DNA from: a virus
Direction: 5' to 3' (one strand)
Virus record (IMG/VR): IMGVR_UViG_3300032282_002017
Coordinates: 2,531-66,530 of that record
Length of the DNA: 64,000 nt
Shown here piece by piece: positions 20,728-34,435 of this stretch. A model generated the notes under the pieces. The model was not told where the DNA came from, made no database searches, and saw only the letters and a list, made by a program, of their open reading frames with translations. The translations under genes and the position numbers were made by a program. The first letter of the stretch is position 1. The number at the start of each line of letters is the position of its first letter.

Positions 20728-21284
20728 TAGAACCCGTTCAACAACACGAAACGCCATCAGGAGGATGGACATATCGCGATGAGCGCACTGGCATCTCATT
20801 TAAGGAACACGCATTAACAGCGATTCTCCAACGTGTGCACAAGTCTTGGATCGCAAACAACATCGAAATCCCCGAAAACTGGCAGGCTGTCATTCGCCAA
20901 GAGATTTGCGAGCAACGGCCCGATATTGAGTGCCGCGAGATTGGTGAGCCTGAACGGTTTACCACGTTTGCAGATGTAGAGCGATTTGCAGTTACGCTCA
21001 AGAACTGGCTATCACAAGGCGCTCAATGGGTTCCGCAAGAAGAGGCTGAACGTAGAGCGGCTATATGTGTTGCGTGCAAAGAAAACCGTCACGCTAAACT
21101 ATGCTTGGGTTGCACGGGGCTTCGTTGGCTTGCAGAGCGTTCTGGTATGCCATCATCCAGCCGTGATCCTGAATTGCAGTCATGCCGTAGGTGCGGTTGT
21201 CAGAACCGAATCGCTATTCATGTTCCAAAAGAGGCGCTGGATACTACGGGCGTTACGTTTCCAAGTCACTGTTGGAAGGCTTAG
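20724..21284 (+). CDS. Cys-rich (Zn-binding) hypothetical phage protein
   Basis: RRAAICVAC..CLGC..CRRCGC..CW; ATGA coupling to the upstream gene. Confidence 0.6.
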   Translation: MIEPVQQHETPSGGWTYRDERTGISFKEHALTAILQRVHKSWIANNIEIPENWQAVIRQEICEQRPDIECREIGEPERFTTFADVERFAVTLKNWLSQGAQWVPQEEAERRAAICVACKENRHAKLCLGCTGLRWLAERSGMPSSSRDPELQSCRRCGCQNRIAIHVPKEALDTTGVTFPSHCWKA

Positions 21285-21496
21285 CTCAAACTTTCGCCAT
21301 GCAAGTGACGTGACATACTTGATGCCAAAACATTATCATTATGGCGAGTATTAATCAGCATGGCTGAAGCAACAGAGGCCAAATCCATTGCCATTTTTCC
21401 TTCTTTGGGCCAAGTGGATTTACTTGCAATCGCAATGGCTGAATCCATTAATGATTGAAGAAATTCGGGGCAATTAAGGTCGATTTCAGTTTTCAT
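21281..21496 (-). CDS. Hypothetical protein
   Basis: Last ORF of the leftward block, converging with the 20724 gene. Confidence 0.4.
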   Translation of the reverse strand: MKTEIDLNCPEFLQSLMDSAIAIASKSTWPKEGKMAMDLASVASAMLINTRHNDNVLASSMSRHLHGESLS

Positions 21497-21522
21497 AATT
21501 GTTTTAGTTTACGTTATGCTTA

Positions 21523-22572
21523 TTAAGCAGCTTTTATCCATCCAGCGGGAACTGACACCTTAAAGCCAGCAGCCTCAAGCTTGGCTTTCATCGTTTGATT
21601 GTCGCTTTTAAGCTCCGAAGCCAGCACATGAAGCCGCAACGAACCCTTTGCCAATTTAGCCTCCACAAGCTCCTTCAAGCCCGAAGGCTCCCCGCTCGCC
21701 ACATCGCCAGCGGGAAGTGGCGCATGAGAACCCCCAACAATTCCCGGTGTTGGGGCTGCATGTGGCGTTGCAGTAACGTCCGGTTGACACTCCCTTTCGG
21801 GAAATAGTAGGTTATCAAGGCTATCGTCCTTGCAACCGTGAATGAGAACAGCCTCTTTGTTCACAAGCCCACCGCGAAGGCGAACCGTGCGGTTAATCGG
21901 CTTTGCATCGCAAGCAATGCCATCAGTAGTTTTGCGGAAATTGATCGTATTCCATTGGTCTGCGATGAGGTTTGTATCAGCCATTCCAATACGGCGAAGG
22001 CTTCCACGCAAATACACGTCAAAAGGAGGCTCAGGATTACGCGGTGGCGGTTTACTCAAGTCAGCCACAAGCGCAGAAGATTCGGGATGCGTGGACAAAT
22101 TGGCTGGATAGATGCCAACAGCCATCATCATTTTGTCATTCGTGACGGTGATAAGCTCACCAGCGCTAATCAGTGGCAAATCAACTACGTTGCCCATGCA
22201 CTCGCGGCCCTTTTGCTTGTATTCCTTCACCAGCGTATTTAGCCAGCCGTAGTCAATTGGACGCGCATCAAGCTCAAGCCACAAAAAGGGTTCTTTATTG
22301 CCGATATTCGCAAGGTGACGAACGGCGCTGACAAACAGCATGTTTACATCAGTGAACAGGCCAAATTGATACTCGTAGCTTGTCTCAAAGCATTCAACGC
22401 CACCAACGGAAGGACGAATTTCATCAGCGGCTTGCTTAGCTTCAGCGGCGCACGATGGCGAGTGAAGAAAAACGATGCCGTGGTCAATTAAGCCCCCAAA
22501 ATGAATGAGAGCTTTGACCATTTTTGGCAGACGGGTGACATCGTGAGTGGTTACAGGGATTACTACTTTCAT
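21523..22572 (-). CDS. Putative GT-A fold glycosyltransferase
   Basis: MKVVIPV N-terminal strand, FLWLELDA (ExD), late HGCKD motif; adjacent to other GTs. Confidence 0.55.
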   Translation of the reverse strand: MKVVIPVTTHDVTRLPKMVKALIHFGGLIDHGIVFLHSPSCAAEAKQAADEIRPSVGGVECFETSYEYQFGLFTDVNMLFVSAVRHLANIGNKEPFLWLELDARPIDYGWLNTLVKEYKQKGRECMGNVVDLPLISAGELITVTNDKMMMAVGIYPANLSTHPESSALVADLSKPPPRNPEPPFDVYLRGSLRRIGMADTNLIADQWNTINFRKTTDGIACDAKPINRTVRLRGGLVNKEAVLIHGCKDDSLDNLLFPERECQPDVTATPHAAPTPGIVGGSHAPLPAGDVASGEPSGLKELVEAKLAKGSLRLHVLASELKSDNQTMKAKLEAAGFKVSVPAGWIKAA

Positions 22573-22589
22573 AAGTGGCGTAAGTTCTT

Positions 22590-23600
22590 TTAGGCGATTC
22601 CAGCGTTTCGTTTAGCAACCATAAACTTCTTTAGCTCAGGGTCAAGCATTACATTGTCAAACCACGAAGGAATCCGCTTGGCGTTGTAGGCGAGTAATTC
22701 GGCCATCGCCTCGTCTTTGGTCAATTTCGGGTTATTCTGCCGCATGAATGTGATGACGACGCTAGGACTCATTTGCGACGGGCAATCGGGATACTGCCAC
22801 ATGCCGGGAGGCGTTTCGTGCATGTTCATCTCTGGCTTAGGCTTGGTTCGCTCTATAACGAGTTCTGGCGTGTCTCCAACGGCGGGTAGGGTCATGGAGC
22901 CATCGGCGCTGTATTGTGCGTTATTTGGGCTGGAATTGAACAAGCAGTCGGGCAACCATAAACAAACCTCCTGAATGCGAGGATGCTTCAATCCTTCCGC
23001 AATCGTCATACAGCTTGACTGGTTAGCGATTAGCAAGGCGCTACCAGCTATTACTTGCGCTGCAATCAAAAAATTCGCCGTTGGATAGTATTCGACCTCC
23101 CCAAATCGCTGTTCAAACAGATCGTGCTCCGGCTTAGTGCCAAGAAAAACCAGTTTCTTGCCATAGTGCTCAACGATTTTGCGCCAAGGAAAGTGCGGAT
23201 TTTCGTATCTGGTTGTTTTGTTGATAACCACACGTTCAGCCCATTTGGTGCTAGGTTTGACTGTTAGCCACGGTTGAGAAACGTCTGGAAACGTGGATAT
23301 GAATTCATCTCGGATTGCTGCTTCAGCATGGTTGAGAGCAAGGCTTAGGCCATTGTTGTGGTATCCGTATTTTCGGAAGTTCTCGGAATGCCAGTCGATA
23401 TGCTCGCCATTCCACGGGCGCACATCTTCAATGTAGGGTTGCGCCTTCACAAGCGGTGCCACAACGTCAAAGCGACGTAGAATGCCAGCGGTTTGCCCGT
23501 TGTCATACAGGTAGCAAATAGCTTTCTCGCCCTTGCTTTTGACGGTGGCTAGAGAAAGGAACAGATCACCCGCATCTCCAACGCTAGCGAAAGTAGTCAT
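22590..23600 (-). CDS. Glycosyltransferase family 9 (heptosyltransferase-like)
   Basis: GDAGDLFLSL and AAQVIAGSALLIANQSSCMTIAEGLKHP match GT9 motifs. Start set at the ATGA overlap (23600). Confidence 0.72.
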   Translation of the reverse strand: MTTFASVGDAGDLFLSLATVKSKGEKAICYLYDNGQTAGILRRFDVVAPLVKAQPYIEDVRPWNGEHIDWHSENFRKYGYHNNGLSLALNHAEAAIRDEFISTFPDVSQPWLTVKPSTKWAERVVINKTTRYENPHFPWRKIVEHYGKKLVFLGTKPEHDLFEQRFGEVEYYPTANFLIAAQVIAGSALLIANQSSCMTIAEGLKHPRIQEVCLWLPDCLFNSSPNNAQYSADGSMTLPAVGDTPELVIERTKPKPEMNMHETPPGMWQYPDCPSQMSPSVVITFMRQNNPKLTKDEAMAELLAYNAKRIPSWFDNVMLDPELKKFMVAKRNAGIA

Positions 23601-32220: not shown

Positions 32221-33021
32221 TTAGATCAACCCATATTTGCGCTTTTCATAAAGAGGTACGTCGAGTTCAATGATGCCTCCACCGTGACCTTTCCATTTGC
32301 CACTAGCGGTACATTCCGCGTGTAGCTCTAGCGCCTTTTCCATCTGCTTTTGTCCAAGCTCAAGGCCATCGGCAGGCGGTTGGAAAATACACACATCAGC
32401 GGCTTCGGAATTTTCAACAGTAAGCCAGTAAAATGCTGGACGGTAATCCAGCCCATACTCAAGCGCTACAAGCGACTGGTACCAGCAACACTGCATGAAA
32501 TATTTGAAGCCACATGCGCTACGCGAGAACTCATGCGGATCACAAGAGGTTGTCGTTTTCAAATCCAAGATGCAGTATTTACCATCCTCATCTTTGAAAA
32601 TGCAGTCAATCTTGCCCTTGATGGTGGTGTCGCGATACTTTTGCACGATGCCTATTTCGCAATCAACAGCTTTGGACAACAGGTATTGAACATCGGCATT
32701 TGCAGCCACAGCATCAACCATGCGCTTGTATTGCGCGTACTCGTCTTGGGTAATGACAGTCTTGGAAGCGTTGGCGTCTTTGAACGCCTTTCCTTCTTTC
32801 GTGCGGCCATCCAGACCATCCGGCATCACGGCGTAGTTTTCTTCACGCCCCTCTAAGCATTTGGAATGCACCATCGTCCCCAAGAACATCGCTTTAGACG
32901 GCTCCTTTTTCGGTGACTTGAGCGCCGTTTGATAGTGAAGGGGTGATGTTAGGATACTTTTCAGCGACGAAAAGTTTAGTCCATTCGCAGCCCTGTACTC
33001 TATGTCGTTTTTGATTTTCAT
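32221..33021 (-). CDS. RecE-like PD-(D/E)XK exonuclease (ExoVIII/DUF3799-like)
   Basis: FSSLK..SPLHY, GTMVH..LE, KGKID, DLKTT, Y.MQ..WY. Confidence 0.88.
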   Translation of the reverse strand: MKIKNDIEYRAANGLNFSSLKSILTSPLHYQTALKSPKKEPSKAMFLGTMVHSKCLEGREENYAVMPDGLDGRTKEGKAFKDANASKTVITQDEYAQYKRMVDAVAANADVQYLLSKAVDCEIGIVQKYRDTTIKGKIDCIFKDEDGKYCILDLKTTTSCDPHEFSRSACGFKYFMQCCWYQSLVALEYGLDYRPAFYWLTVENSEAADVCIFQPPADGLELGQKQMEKALELHAECTASGKWKGHGGGIIELDVPLYEKRKYGLI

Positions 33022-33024
33022 AAA

Positions 33025-33077
33025 TTTTAACTGATCGTTGCAGCGAACCCTACGAGTCGCTGAACTAGGTGTTCGGC
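33025..33077 (+). mobile_element. Integron attC-like site 1 (53 bp)
   Basis: TTTTAAC-TGATC-GTTGCAGC-GAAC-CCTACGA-GTC-GCTGAAC-TAGGT-GTTCGGC gives R''-5-L''...L'-5-R' with two extrahelical bases. Confidence 0.75.
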
Positions 33078-33606
33078 GTCAAAGTCGTGGCCGGTAGATT
33101 ATCACGGCGACGGGAAACGGCGCGGAGGCGTCCGCACCTGCAAATTTCACGCGCCCCTTCGGAAATCGGACTTCGCCTTTCGCGGCGTAGTTGTGCCACC
33201 AGTTTGTATCCACGCGGGCAGGCACGAAGCACACGACGAGCGCACCGTTGTCCCGCGCTTCCTCGTAGGCTTTCTTCATCCACCGACCGAGATCGCGGCC
33301 ATACGGCGGATTCATAAACACACGCTCGTCTTGCCACGATTGCGCCAGCCCGTCCTCAGCGGGCGTGTAGTGCTTCGCGCACTTGGCGGTTTCGTGGTGG
33401 CAGCACGGATCGAGCGTGAATCCGAACTCCAGATCGAGGTAGTCGAACCATTGCTGCGGAGTCGCCCACGTCATGTCTTTCGAGGATGACATCACTTGGC
33501 GCGAGTGCGTTGACGCCGAACAAGGCGGTGGACTCAACAGAGTCCCGGCGGGAGTTGGTTCTGTATTCATAGATTATTGGCGGGACTCTGTGAGTCACCT
33601 ATTGCG
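33072..33606 (+). mobile_element. Integron-type gene cassette carrying the Dam methylase gene in inverted orientation
   Basis: Bounded by G|TTCGGC and G|TTAAGA. Cassette start is complementary to its own R'' (GCCGAAC). Local GC rises (37/60 in the hand-counted line at 33121). Confidence 0.72.
33079..33570 (-). CDS. Phage-type DNA N6-adenine methyltransferase (Dam family)
   Basis: WATPQ, FTLDPC, DGL, VFMNPPYG, PARVDT.WWH, GRVKF, APFP. Confidence 0.92.
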   Translation of the reverse strand: MNTEPTPAGTLLSPPPCSASTHSRQVMSSSKDMTWATPQQWFDYLDLEFGFTLDPCCHHETAKCAKHYTPAEDGLAQSWQDERVFMNPPYGRDLGRWMKKAYEEARDNGALVVCFVPARVDTNWWHNYAAKGEVRFPKGRVKFAGADASAPFPVAVIIYRPRL

Positions 33607-33612
33607 TTAAGA
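33515..33612 (+). mobile_element. Integron attC-like site 2 (98 bp)
   Basis: GCCGAAC-AAGGC-GGTGGACT-CAAC-AGAGTCCCG..loop..CGGGACTCT-GTG-AGTCACC-TATTGC-GTTAAGA. Confidence 0.8.
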
Positions 33613-34340
33613 CTGAACTGCCCCACTTCCTGACTCGGCAGCTTCAACGCAGCTTGCGGAACTGGCGTAATGTCGCGTTCAAGAACCACATCGCCATCCT
33701 TGTCGATATGCTCGGCAATCTCGCTAGAGAGTGGCAGTAGCTTGCAAAGACGACGAATGCTCGTTTTCTTTGCCATTTCGCCATAGTCAGTTGCCCAAGG
33801 GCCAGATGCGCCAGAACGACTACGTTTGCGAATAGCATCAACTTCGTCTTTGGTCATGGTGGCAGTCTGCGTCTCGCCTGATTTGAGCACGGCTTCAGCA
33901 TAAACGGCCTGAACATCGCCACGCGGTTTACGCCAATCAACCTTGTGCGTCACCTTGCCATTCTCCCATGAGAACTCGTCATTCTCACACACAAGCTCAG
34001 AGCGGATGCTAAGCACATCACCAGAACGTCGAACGAGTTCAATCAATCCAAGATAACTCAAAATCAAAGTGCATTCAGTGCCGTATGGAATCAGGTAAGC
34101 CCTACGCCCATCAGGCTCAAGGCCAGCGGCGGAAAGGTCAAGCAAGCATTTGAACAGGCTGGTCTGCGTGCAATCCTGCAACTTCGGCGTTCGCTGCAAA
34201 GCGGTAAGGGCGATGCGAGCAAAGCGATCTGGCGTCATGTGGCTAGGCAATGCCAGCGACAATTGCTGCTTAAACTGCTCCCCTCCAATTAGCTCTTTGA
34301 TACTCGCGGGTTTCTTGGCAATTTGTGTTTCTTCGCTCAT
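33567..34340 (-). CDS. recT: RecT-family single-strand annealing recombinase
   Basis: LALP.HMTPDRFARIALT, GLEPD..AYLIPY, SYLGLIELVRRSG, GPWATDYGEMAKKT..RRL.K.LP.S. Confidence 0.93.
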   Translation of the reverse strand: MSEETQIAKKPASIKELIGGEQFKQQLSLALPSHMTPDRFARIALTALQRTPKLQDCTQTSLFKCLLDLSAAGLEPDGRRAYLIPYGTECTLILSYLGLIELVRRSGDVLSIRSELVCENDEFSWENGKVTHKVDWRKPRGDVQAVYAEAVLKSGETQTATMTKDEVDAIRKRSRSGASGPWATDYGEMAKKTSIRRLCKLLPLSSEIAEHIDKDGDVVLERDITPVPQAALKLPSQEVGQFSLNAIGDSQSPANNL

Positions 34341-34435
34341 AATAGGCACCAATCCTCGCTCAATCTCTGTCTGATTGCAACCTTCAACTTTATGTTTCTC
34401 GTTGAAAGTGTCTCGATTTGAGTTTAGCCTTTCTT

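Follow-up and report, generated by a model that had tools for sequence, protein, structure and literature searches.

A methylase gene (dam) in this phage genome lies between two sites of the integron attC type, inside a recT-recE operon. The 603 bp that hold the gene and both sites have probably been acquired as one segment, whose entry or exchange was probably mediated by the integron integrase of a host. The window, the whole stretch of DNA analysed, is 64 kb long. All coordinates given in an earlier note agreed with the sequence. The features are as follows, with R3 denoting an attC covariance model described below.

32221–33021, minus strand: recE-like PD-(D/E)XK exonuclease (PF12684, PF12705, phrog_412)
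33022–33624: putative acquired segment of 603 bp with both attC sites, dam and 12 more bases; missing from related recT-recE loci
33025–33077, minus strand: attC-like site 1, 53 nt; R3 match at 33029–33073, 24.8 bits, E 5.6e-4
33079–33570, minus strand: dam, an orphan N6-adenine DNA methylase with an NPPY motif (PF05869, E 2.9e-26, residues 28–149; phrog_111)
33515–33612, minus strand: attC site 2, full-length ungapped R3 match, 49.9 bits, E 2.5e-10
33567–34352, minus strand: recT, single-strand annealing protein (PF03837, E 1.1e-45)

The boundaries of the segment were defined by related phages. Similarity of recT ends at 33625 in comparison with L003 and at 33630 with L002, and similarity of recE to L004 and L009 begins at its ATG (33021). 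Dam was present at the junction in none of 28 related recT-recE loci. The two genes abut or overlap in 24 of these, with the recT stop overlapping the recE ATG at the ten junctions inspected. The unit 33072–33606 is GC-richer than its surroundings, as described before (0.58–0.63 vs. 0.44–0.53 in the flanks). A nucleotide search with the recT-dam-recE stretch yielded no match in INPHARED phages, in near and distant modes, or in E. coli genomes.

The earlier note had suggested that the phage carries an attC landing pad loaded with changing genes. The pad is not supported: none was present at the recT-recE junction of the 28 relatives, and the indel comprises the whole segment, both sites included. 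The expectation of other genes at this position held in part. Four of the 28 relatives have other genes at the junction, but these lack flanking hairpins, and R3 detected no attC at the junctions. Pfam has no family for these four ORFs. At other loci, R3 found attC sites in three relatives (G012, G013 and G014). In G013, an attC match follows a dam homologue (51% identity), and a further attC-type hairpin upstream of this homologue was recognised by eye.

The R boxes of attC sites have the consensus RYYYAAC and GTTRRRY with conserved AAC and GTT triplets; in the bottom strand, the one that recombines, the arm opposite AAC has two or three extrahelical bases (PMC5027507). Both phage sites carry AAC and GTT, and the heptamers TTTTAAC, GTTCGGC, GCCGAAC and GTTAAGA fit the consensus partly. 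Site 2 consists of GCCGAAC, a 5-nt spacer, a 19-bp stem with two bulges (G33531 and A33537), a 6-nt spacer and GTTAAGA. It has the bottom-strand configuration on the minus (gene-sense) strand, and its two bulges are on the 3′ arm of that strand, in the place of the extrahelical bases. As single-stranded DNA, it folds better than shuffled sequences (z −3.8 and −4.7, none of 200 shuffles as good).

The home-made covariance model R3 represents 27 real attC sites from a class 1 integron in L245 and from arrays next to integron integrase genes (L202, L204 and L188), which were chosen and aligned with the model R2, itself trained on the phage family. A search of the whole 64-kb window without filters, with E-values from a shortened calibration, gave two significant matches, sites 2 and 1, both on the minus strand and flanking dam. 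The check with an attC model proposed in the earlier note was thus positive for both sites with this home-made model. Site 1 was the second-best match, and the next one had an E-value of 1.2. The central spacers of site 2 (6 nt and 5 nt) are those of the real sites behind R3. With the family models, site 2 scored 88.3 and 86.5 bits.

The family of hairpins to which site 2 belongs also occurs as arrays in phage records without an integrase; five array-bearing ones revealed no tyrosine recombinase. All 19 stem pairs were altered on both sides within the family. The covariation score was 0.514 vs. 0.139 after shuffling; it was reached by none of 500 shuffles and fell to at most 0.10 on sliding. 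Model-based alignments were used in place of the MAFFT alignment A1, in which the inner stem was misaligned and from which RNAalifold retrieved the basal helix only. Rfam offered no family, the sole match being a 13-nt chance match to ssnA (E 1.7). An element of the IS200/IS605 or MITE type, with hairpins close to its ends, was considered and dropped because the hairpins are homologous to attC sites.

Site 1 is less typical. TTTTAAC is followed by a 5-nt spacer, a 9-bp stem with a bulged G (33040) and a 10-nt loop, a 5-nt spacer and GTTCGGC. Contrary to the earlier description of a second extrahelical base, site 1 has one such base, not two. Its 5-nt and 5-nt spacers appear as one deletion in the R3 model alignment. 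The family models R1 and R2 did not detect it, and its single-stranded fold was no better than that of shuffled sequences (z −0.85, 38 of 200 shuffles as good). One other phage lineage, L206, has a homologue with AAC and GTT flanks (R2: 14.9 bits, E 0.055). A viral scan for the arms of site 1 revealed two loci, this homologue and one coding coincidence. The same scan of metagenomes revealed 33 loci, none with recT, recE or dam. Three have the L206 sequence; the other 30 were unrelated to site 1 by eye, many being copies of one coding sequence. A scan by a rule written after seeing the sites (AAC and GTT at the two ends, 5–6 nt next to each, and between them a stem of 9 bp or more with no more than one bulge) found only sites 1 and 2 in 64 kb, with about 0.33 sites expected per random 64 kb.

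The inner R boxes of the two sites are part of an inverted repeat.

33070–33082: left arm, 13 bp perfect, with the R′ heptamer GTTCGGC at 33071–33077
33510–33522: right arm, 13 bp perfect, with the R″ heptamer GCCGAAC at 33515–33521

The repeat, reported before, is real and perfect; a repeat of such length arose in 26 of 3000 random 851-nt sequences. The reported cross-match between the ends of the two sites was reproduced as well. At the four variable R-box positions, swapped partners match in seven of eight cases vs. one of eight for the partners now in place. Between the outer R-box halves of the two sites, three of four variable positions agree.

Bacterial counterparts of the hairpins are located next to integron integrases. 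According to R2, arrays in the Verrucomicrobia L202 and L204 diverge from IntI genes in the canonical manner, starting about 0.4–0.5 kb upstream of them. Both adjoin TIGR02249-positive genes, which ties the family of site 2 to such genes. TIGR02249 was above cut-off in all five element-bearing bacterial genomes tested (10 found) and in none of 14 controls. This dam as query had no match in the five IntI-bearing bacterial genomes, which does not imply absence of such genes. The sedentary chromosomal arrays of L202 and L204 share with the family of site 2 the spacers of 6 nt and 5 nt, the bulges on the arm opposite AAC and the conserved motifs AACG and CTTGTTC; the basal stem is common to site 2 and an attC of the Verrucomicrobia MAG L192. 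Unlike the phage locus, the Verrucomicrobia arrays have an adjoining intI, and their ORFs are on the top strand in 14 of 15 intervals.

The similarity extends to mobile integrons. On the class 1 integron region of a phage P1 isolate (MH445380), R2 produced seven matches with E <1e-3, six of them directly 3′ of an annotated cassette gene and on the opposite strand. These class 1 attC sites (59-base elements) were detected at 22–39 bits and have the box order and strand logic of the family. They differ from the phage sites in that they are short (60–70 nt) and follow top-strand resistance genes next to intI1 and attI1.

The earlier statement that the window lacks an integrase holds for the complete 66.5-kb phage genome, in which PF00589 had no match. 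The locus is not a complete integron, with intI and attI beside an array, as the genome has no tyrosine recombinase. Sites 1 and 2 are on the same strand, 442 nt apart, in a genome without an integrase; judged by sequence, dam and its two sites are a small CALIN (cluster of attC sites lacking an integron integrase) by the published definition (Cury et al. 2016, PMC4889954). The integrase would be supplied by the host cell and, we infer, act in trans. The segment would enter and exchange by recombination at the AAC and GTT triplets of single-stranded, folded attC hairpins. Dam may then methylate phage DNA against host restriction.

Contigs of other metagenomes contain the dam portion of the segment.

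33071–33527: dam module, near-identical in other metagenomes, bounded by the two inner R boxes

The three runs (X2–X4) represent contigs only, in which rare excision products are invisible, and do not cover recT and recE. The X2 contig spans 33057–33527. The X3 contig matches 33071–33212 with one difference and is unlike beyond 33071; the X4 contig matches 33070–33204 with no difference and is unlike beyond 33070. All three diverge after 33527. X3 has a site 2-like hairpin ending at GTT 33608. The same module sits between other hairpins in other metagenomes, with breakpoints at R boxes. A 72-base skip in a single X4 contig (33327–33400, depth 2.2) was disregarded. Of the crossover points expected by the earlier note, the left one (G|TT, 33071|33072) coincides with the break at 33070/33071 in two runs, but the right one had been placed at 33606|33607, and the break is at 33527 in three runs. 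The search that it proposed for an empty allele or a circular junction was without result: neither these nor a site 1-only allele were found in the viral and metagenome scans or in the contigs of the three runs.

Several observations argue against the acquisition of the segment through a host integrase. Site 1 is weak, the gene orientation is reversed and no excision product or empty allele was found. In three runs, the module leaves its hairpin at 33527, unlike a canonical cassette of a gene with its own attC, which would do so at 33606|33607. Such a cassette, a top-strand ORF moving together with its own downstream attC, is not present here because dam lies on the bottom strand and the dam module occurs with other hairpins and breaks at 33527.

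Dam lies on the bottom strand of attC, an orientation opposite to that of bacterial cassettes and usual in the phage family. The hairpin therefore forms the 5′ leader of dam. The last 13 codons of recT are the 5′ half of site 2, and the loop contains the recT stop together with the first dam ATG. Of 49 members of the phage family, 38 contain a start codon whose ORF continues for 40 codons or more past the element, vs. 2 of 27 bacterial attC sites; an upstream frame ends within the element in 43 of 49 vs. 8 of 27. A narrow literature search found no description of reverse polarity in phages.

These features would fit a more far-reaching and tentative reading. Phages may keep their own pool of reverse-polarity integron cassettes, in which the attC bottom strand is coding and each hairpin supplies the stop of one gene and the start of the following one. 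Gene and hairpin modules would be exchanged separately at both R-box triplets, and host integrases would edit lytic genomes, core operons included. Such separate exchange implies that both attC strands recombine or that genes flip between neighbouring sites. Reverse polarity and breakpoints at both R boxes are not predicted by the bacterial model.

Short conserved intergenic elements that serve modular gene shuffling are known from phages: the promoter–stem-loops (PeSL) or ‘mobile regulatory cassettes’ of T4-type phages and the boundary or linker sequences of lambdoid phages. Both act by homologous recombination; they carry promoters and are not known to have attC architecture. In general outline, the hairpins described here resemble them as short conserved intergenic elements. 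The hairpins might descend from attC and now be linkers. Modules would then be swapped by ordinary recombination through homology or microhomology, for which the R-box and spacer motifs offer about 12 conserved bases, without an integron integrase. The phages' own RecT/RecE-type enzymes could perform the exchange during co-infection. We consider this somewhat unlikely, despite a number of matching observations. The breaks of the dam module, at 33070/71 and 33527, fall at the two inner R boxes rather than at a single R′ for each cassette. Near-identical hairpins are located before at least five unrelated ORFs, with similarity ending right after the conserved heptamer. In the family member L124, two hairpin types are combined and the arms are unpaired, which points to an ordinary homologous exchange with a crossover within the loop. 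The insert sits inside the recT-recE operon, the junction of which also accepts other genes without hairpins, and neither the phage genome nor the five array-bearing records revealed a tyrosine recombinase. However, the stems retain pairing, bulge positions and spacer lengths despite extensive sequence change, which a mere linker would not need. The matching outer R-box halves are as a G|TT crossover would leave them, and IntI1 was shown to act on attC sites of other phages (PMC9892861).

The hairpins may also act mainly as RNA and have no present role in recombination. Site 2 would couple or throttle the translation of dam after recT, and site 1 would end or stabilise the message before recE. 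The structure is on the sense strand, and the overlap of the recT stop and the dam ATG (ATGA) in the loop suggests translational coupling of dam to recT. The frequent start and stop codons inside the phage elements, less frequent in bacterial attC, agree with such a function. As the main role it is improbable: it leaves unexplained the conserved AAC and GTT triplets, the unpaired spacers, the homology to IntI-adjacent sites, the breakpoints at R boxes and the scatter of elements across different loci of related phages. The hairpins could serve as RNA and as DNA at once, and the two roles are not necessarily alternatives. An ordinary moron gene with palindromes on either side by chance is hardly credible, even with a site 1 that alone folds no better than shuffled sequence, in view of the model matches, the family covariation, the count of just two rule matches in the 64 kb and the rarity of the 13-bp repeat in random sequences.

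Phage attC clusters with methylase cassettes were already published in 2023 (PMC9892861). Like the phage studied here, those phages have attC without intI and a DNA methylase among the cassettes, and the integrase is expected from the host. Their arrays are described as same-direction, ‘most typical of bacterial arrays’, with some divergent sites. Here, in contrast to the arrays described there, a single gene is wedged into the recT-recE operon on the attC bottom strand, with stop and start in the loop. The present analysis adds these variant features and the family resource of models, arrays and bacterial counterparts; clusters of attC and methylase genes in phages are in print. If host integrases act on the sites, lytic phages can acquire and shed methylases and other counter-defence genes through integrons, even within essential operons, and phages would carry cassettes between bacteria. 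A reverse-polarity pool, if true, would connect the accessory genes of phages with the integrons of Verrucomicrobia and similar bacterial carriers. Reverse polarity and the breakpoints at both R boxes raise two questions: which attC strand recombines in phages, and whether translational coupling is a second function of the hairpin.

The long dam ORF starts at the ATG in the site 2 loop. Met27 (33490–33492) may be the real start, since the Pfam domain starts only at residue 28. Among the 16 best-ranked homologue loci in a tblastn search with dam, the match starts at residues 12–26 in 13 and at residue 1 in three.

Between recT and recE, this phage has gained a dam gene with an attC-type site on either side. 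The source record of the window (its bases 2531-66530) is a 66,530-bp IMG/VR virus with direct terminal repeats, rated complete. The locus comprises:

32221-33021, minus strand: recE-like PD-(D/E)XK exonuclease (PF12684; phrog_412 'exonuclease VIII')
33025-33077, minus strand: site 1, attC-like hairpin
33079-33570, minus strand: dam (PF05869, E 2.9e-26, residues 28-149 matched)
33515-33612, minus strand: site 2, attC hairpin
33567-34352, minus strand: recT (PF03837, E 1.1e-45)

At 33567-33570, the recT stop overlaps the first ATG of dam, as ATGA. A direct check of the sequence located every feature described by the earlier note, including the two attC-type sites around dam, and the unit 33072-33606 is GC-richer than its flanks as claimed (0.58-0.63 inside versus 0.44-0.53 outside). 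The real dam start may be Met27 (33490-33492), because the Pfam domain begins at residue 28 and the tblastn matches of Dam homologues start at residues 12-26 in 13 of the 16 best-ranked loci and at residue 1 in three; the 26 hairpin-encoded codons would then be an optional extension.

Among 3000 random sequences of 851 nt, 26 contained a perfect 13-bp inverted repeat like the one at the inner ends. A scan rule drawn up once both sites were known (AAC, spacer, bulged stem no shorter than 9 bp, spacer, GTT) matched exactly twice in the whole 64 kb, at sites 1 and 2, with about 0.33 matches expected per random 64 kb. As single-stranded DNA, site 2 folds far better than its shuffles (z −3.8 and −4.7; 0/200 equal). 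Site 1 has no fold advantage over shuffles (z −0.85; 38/200 equally good). It is the weaker of the two sites, with one bulge and 5-nt spacers on either side.

The site 2 hairpin belongs to a large structured family in phages. Hairpins of this type with compensatory changes lie upstream of dam in two phage contigs with Dam homologues (L055 and L056), and motif scans recovered further copies. A covariance model of the phage hairpins, R1, had 48 matches in 57 sources. In several records, three to five copies stand in one orientation as an array, 270-1500 nt apart (R1, E 0.1 or better); two of these records are rated 96% and 100% complete. Among 40 family members, all 19 stem pairs have changed on both sides, and pairing holds in 93% of cells. 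Covariation scores 0.514, compared with 0.139 after shuffling (none of 500 shuffles as high) and no more than 0.10 with slid partners, in an alignment that was fitted to the model and is thus biased in favour of the structure. The AAC and GTT triplets are conserved together with a few adjoining bases, as are the unpaired 6-nt and 5-nt spacers and the bulge positions. No Rfam family corresponds to this hairpin. Site 1 was not detected by R1 or by a broader model, R2. One further phage lineage, L206, has a site 1 homologue with AAC…GTT flanks that is 84% identical across 49 nt; this homologue scored 14.9 bits with R2 (E 0.055), and its sequence was found again in three metagenome contigs.

Both sites share homology with integron attC sites. 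When one genome per prokaryote species was scanned with a gapped motif, 10 bacterial loci emerged. An integron integrase above the TIGR02249 cut-off was present in 5/5 genomes with the best model scores and in 0/14 control genomes. In two integrase-bearing genomes (L202, L204), the R2 arrays begin about 0.4-0.5 kb upstream of intI and head away from it. In L202, the ORFs and the model matches are on opposite strands; this is the canonical integron layout, and it makes the model strand the attC bottom strand. R2 was also run on a positive control, the class 1 integron region of MH445380, an isolate of phage P1 that a passage of PMC9892861 names. Of its 7 matches there (E <1e-3), 6 are immediately 3′ of an annotated cassette gene and opposite to it in strand.

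The attC covariance-model check proposed in the earlier note was made with a home-made model, R3, trained on 27 real attC sites (the class 1 integron, two IntI-adjacent arrays and a Luteolibacter array) and excluding phage-array elements. In an unfiltered search of the whole window, site 2 scored 49.9 bits (E 2.5e-10; full length, gapless, minus strand) and site 1 (33029-33073, minus strand) 24.8 bits (E 5.6e-4), followed by a third match with 11.6 bits (E 1.2); the training sites were chosen and aligned with R2 and the E-values come from a shortened calibration. The sites flanking dam are canonical attC sites. By the definition in a passage of PMC4889954 (two attC sites less than 4 kb apart on one strand, no intI nearby), they form a CALIN. 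The absence of an integrase, noticed earlier for the window, extends to the whole phage genome, which has no match to the tyrosine recombinase family PF00589; five array-bearing phage records have none either. Integrase-less phage loci (L047, L049, L050, L053, L056, L120, L132, L148, L149 and L178) carry co-oriented arrays of three to eight attC sites.

Queries of IMG/VR with RecT and RecE gave 39 loci, 32 via RecT, of which 28 had both genes. In none of these 28 does dam lie between recT and recE. The two genes abut or overlap in 24, and the recT stop overlaps the recE ATG in ten junctions inspected. The other four carry different ORFs at this junction:

L002:2740-3327 and L024:4732-5280: mutually homologous ORFs, 182-195 aa
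L003:4707-4949: ORF of about 80 aa
L015:4773-5510: ORF of 245 aa

These ORFs have no Pfam family and no flanking hairpins; for accessory genes in general, this junction is a hot spot. In local alignments, recT similarity stops at 33625 (L003) or 33630 (L002) and recE similarity begins at its ATG, 33021. These alignment limits delineate 33022-33624 as the lineage-specific segment. Both sites fall within it, and the attC landing pad proposed earlier was seen in no relative.

The genes are oriented unusually. According to a passage of PMC5027507, the recombined bottom strand bears AAC in R′ and has its extrahelical bases on the opposite arm. In the window, as in the whole phage family, it is the coding strand that has this configuration. 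Across 30 Dam-homologue loci, each of the 32 R2 matches points the same way as dam. Of the intervals in phage arrays, 23/30 have their longer ORF on the model strand; in bacterial arrays, 14/15 have it on the opposite strand. A start codon with an ORF running at least 40 codons occurs in 38/49 phage elements versus 2/27 bacterial and class 1 sites; an upstream frame ends in the element in 43/49 versus 8/27. Judged by these counts, phage cassettes are reversed relative to bacterial ones, with a stop-start junction inside the hairpin. The bacterial arrays L188, L202 and L204 thus have a polarity opposite to that of the phage arrays, whose genes occupy the attC bottom strand. The ATGA overlap in the loop would couple dam translation to recT.

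In other metagenomes and related phages, the same modules occur in other combinations, with the R boxes as joints. Contigs with near-identical dam sequence were found in three other metagenome runs (X2, X3, X4), and two further contigs match parts of site 2:

33057-33527: X2 contig, dam match
33071-33212: X3 contig, 1 difference, unlike beyond
33070-33204: X4 contig, 0 differences, unlike beyond
33567-33608: separate X3 contig, divergence right after GTT
33517-33597: another X2 contig, match

The left breakpoint of the dam module falls at the attC crossover point G/TT, 33071/33072 (X3, X4), as the earlier note had placed it. Its right boundary, 33606/33607, did not hold: past 33527, the dam contigs of all three runs diverge into a different hairpin arm, and the gene module breaks within 33515-33527, the inner R box with its spacer. 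As this stretch is conserved family-wide, the crossover could be anywhere in it, including the top-strand AA/C 33520/33521. The earlier reading is partly supported: attC identity and one of its two boundaries stand, and the landing pad and IntI-driven loading are hypothetical. Given a breakpoint at G/TT on one side and at the inner R box on the other, genes and hairpins seem to be swapped as separate modules, at the triplets of both R boxes. Nearly identical hairpins before at least five unrelated ORFs fit this, as does a hybrid hairpin (L124:1059-1158) with a 5′ arm of the window type and a 3′ arm of the L112 type. Its arms have lost their pairing because they are of two types, and it looks like the product of a crossover within shared loop sequence.

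Recombination would act on single strands in their folded form, with an IntI provided in trans by the host. The outer R-box halves are complementary at 3/4 variable positions and the inner halves at 4/4, extended to 13 bp; the halves as now paired match at 1/8. On sequence grounds, this supports a G/TT exchange between one former site (outer) and a cassette (inner). The chief alternative is that the conserved motifs serve for homologous or microhomology recombination, perhaps carried out by RecT/RecE of the phages themselves. This accounts better for the double breakpoints and the hybrid hairpin, and less well for the conserved bulges and spacers. A real contribution of folded-strand recombination by host IntI in trans seems somewhat probable. 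An RNA-level role of the hairpins is compatible with either route. Protection of phage DNA from restriction is an established role of phage orphan methylases, and by analogy Dam would shield this phage.

This kind of element is already known. Passages of PMC9892861 (Qi et al. 2023) report 17 CALINs among 10,705 phage genomes screened, five methylase cassettes and the recombination of five of six tested phage attC sites by IntI1. No earlier description was found of the recT-recE insertion, the reverse polarity with a stop-start in the loop, the Verrucomicrobia counterparts or the double breakpoints, PMC9892861 being covered without its supplements.

RecT-relatives of the phage have attC sites elsewhere (two in G012, three in G013, one in G014); none were found in the relative G015 or in G011, a fragment. 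G013 has a dam homologue (51% identity) elsewhere in its genome (L247:205-844); an R3 match at 745-844 follows this gene, and an attC-type hairpin upstream of the gene, at about 205-337, was recognised by eye. In G012 and G014 (L248, L249), attC sites lie beside genes mapping to window 20856-21086 and 21526-23105. Unlike the matching place in these genomes, window 21086-21526 (approximately) has no significant attC and may thus be a second variable locus.

Among the bacterial loci, L203 (G010:C38) encodes an integron integrase on the plus strand, with family attC sites 3-8 kb past its 3′ end. Their top strand is co-directional with intI, unlike the usual divergent layout. The array-adjacent IntI match of the Verrucomicrobia genome G007 (L204:3980-4918, contig C127) is interrupted by one in-frame TGA, which may reflect a pseudogene, an assembly error or recoding. 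In a Verrucomicrobia MAG, one attC (L192:4893-4984) has a basal stem sequence in common with window site 2, a weak hint at the phage host range or the cassette source.
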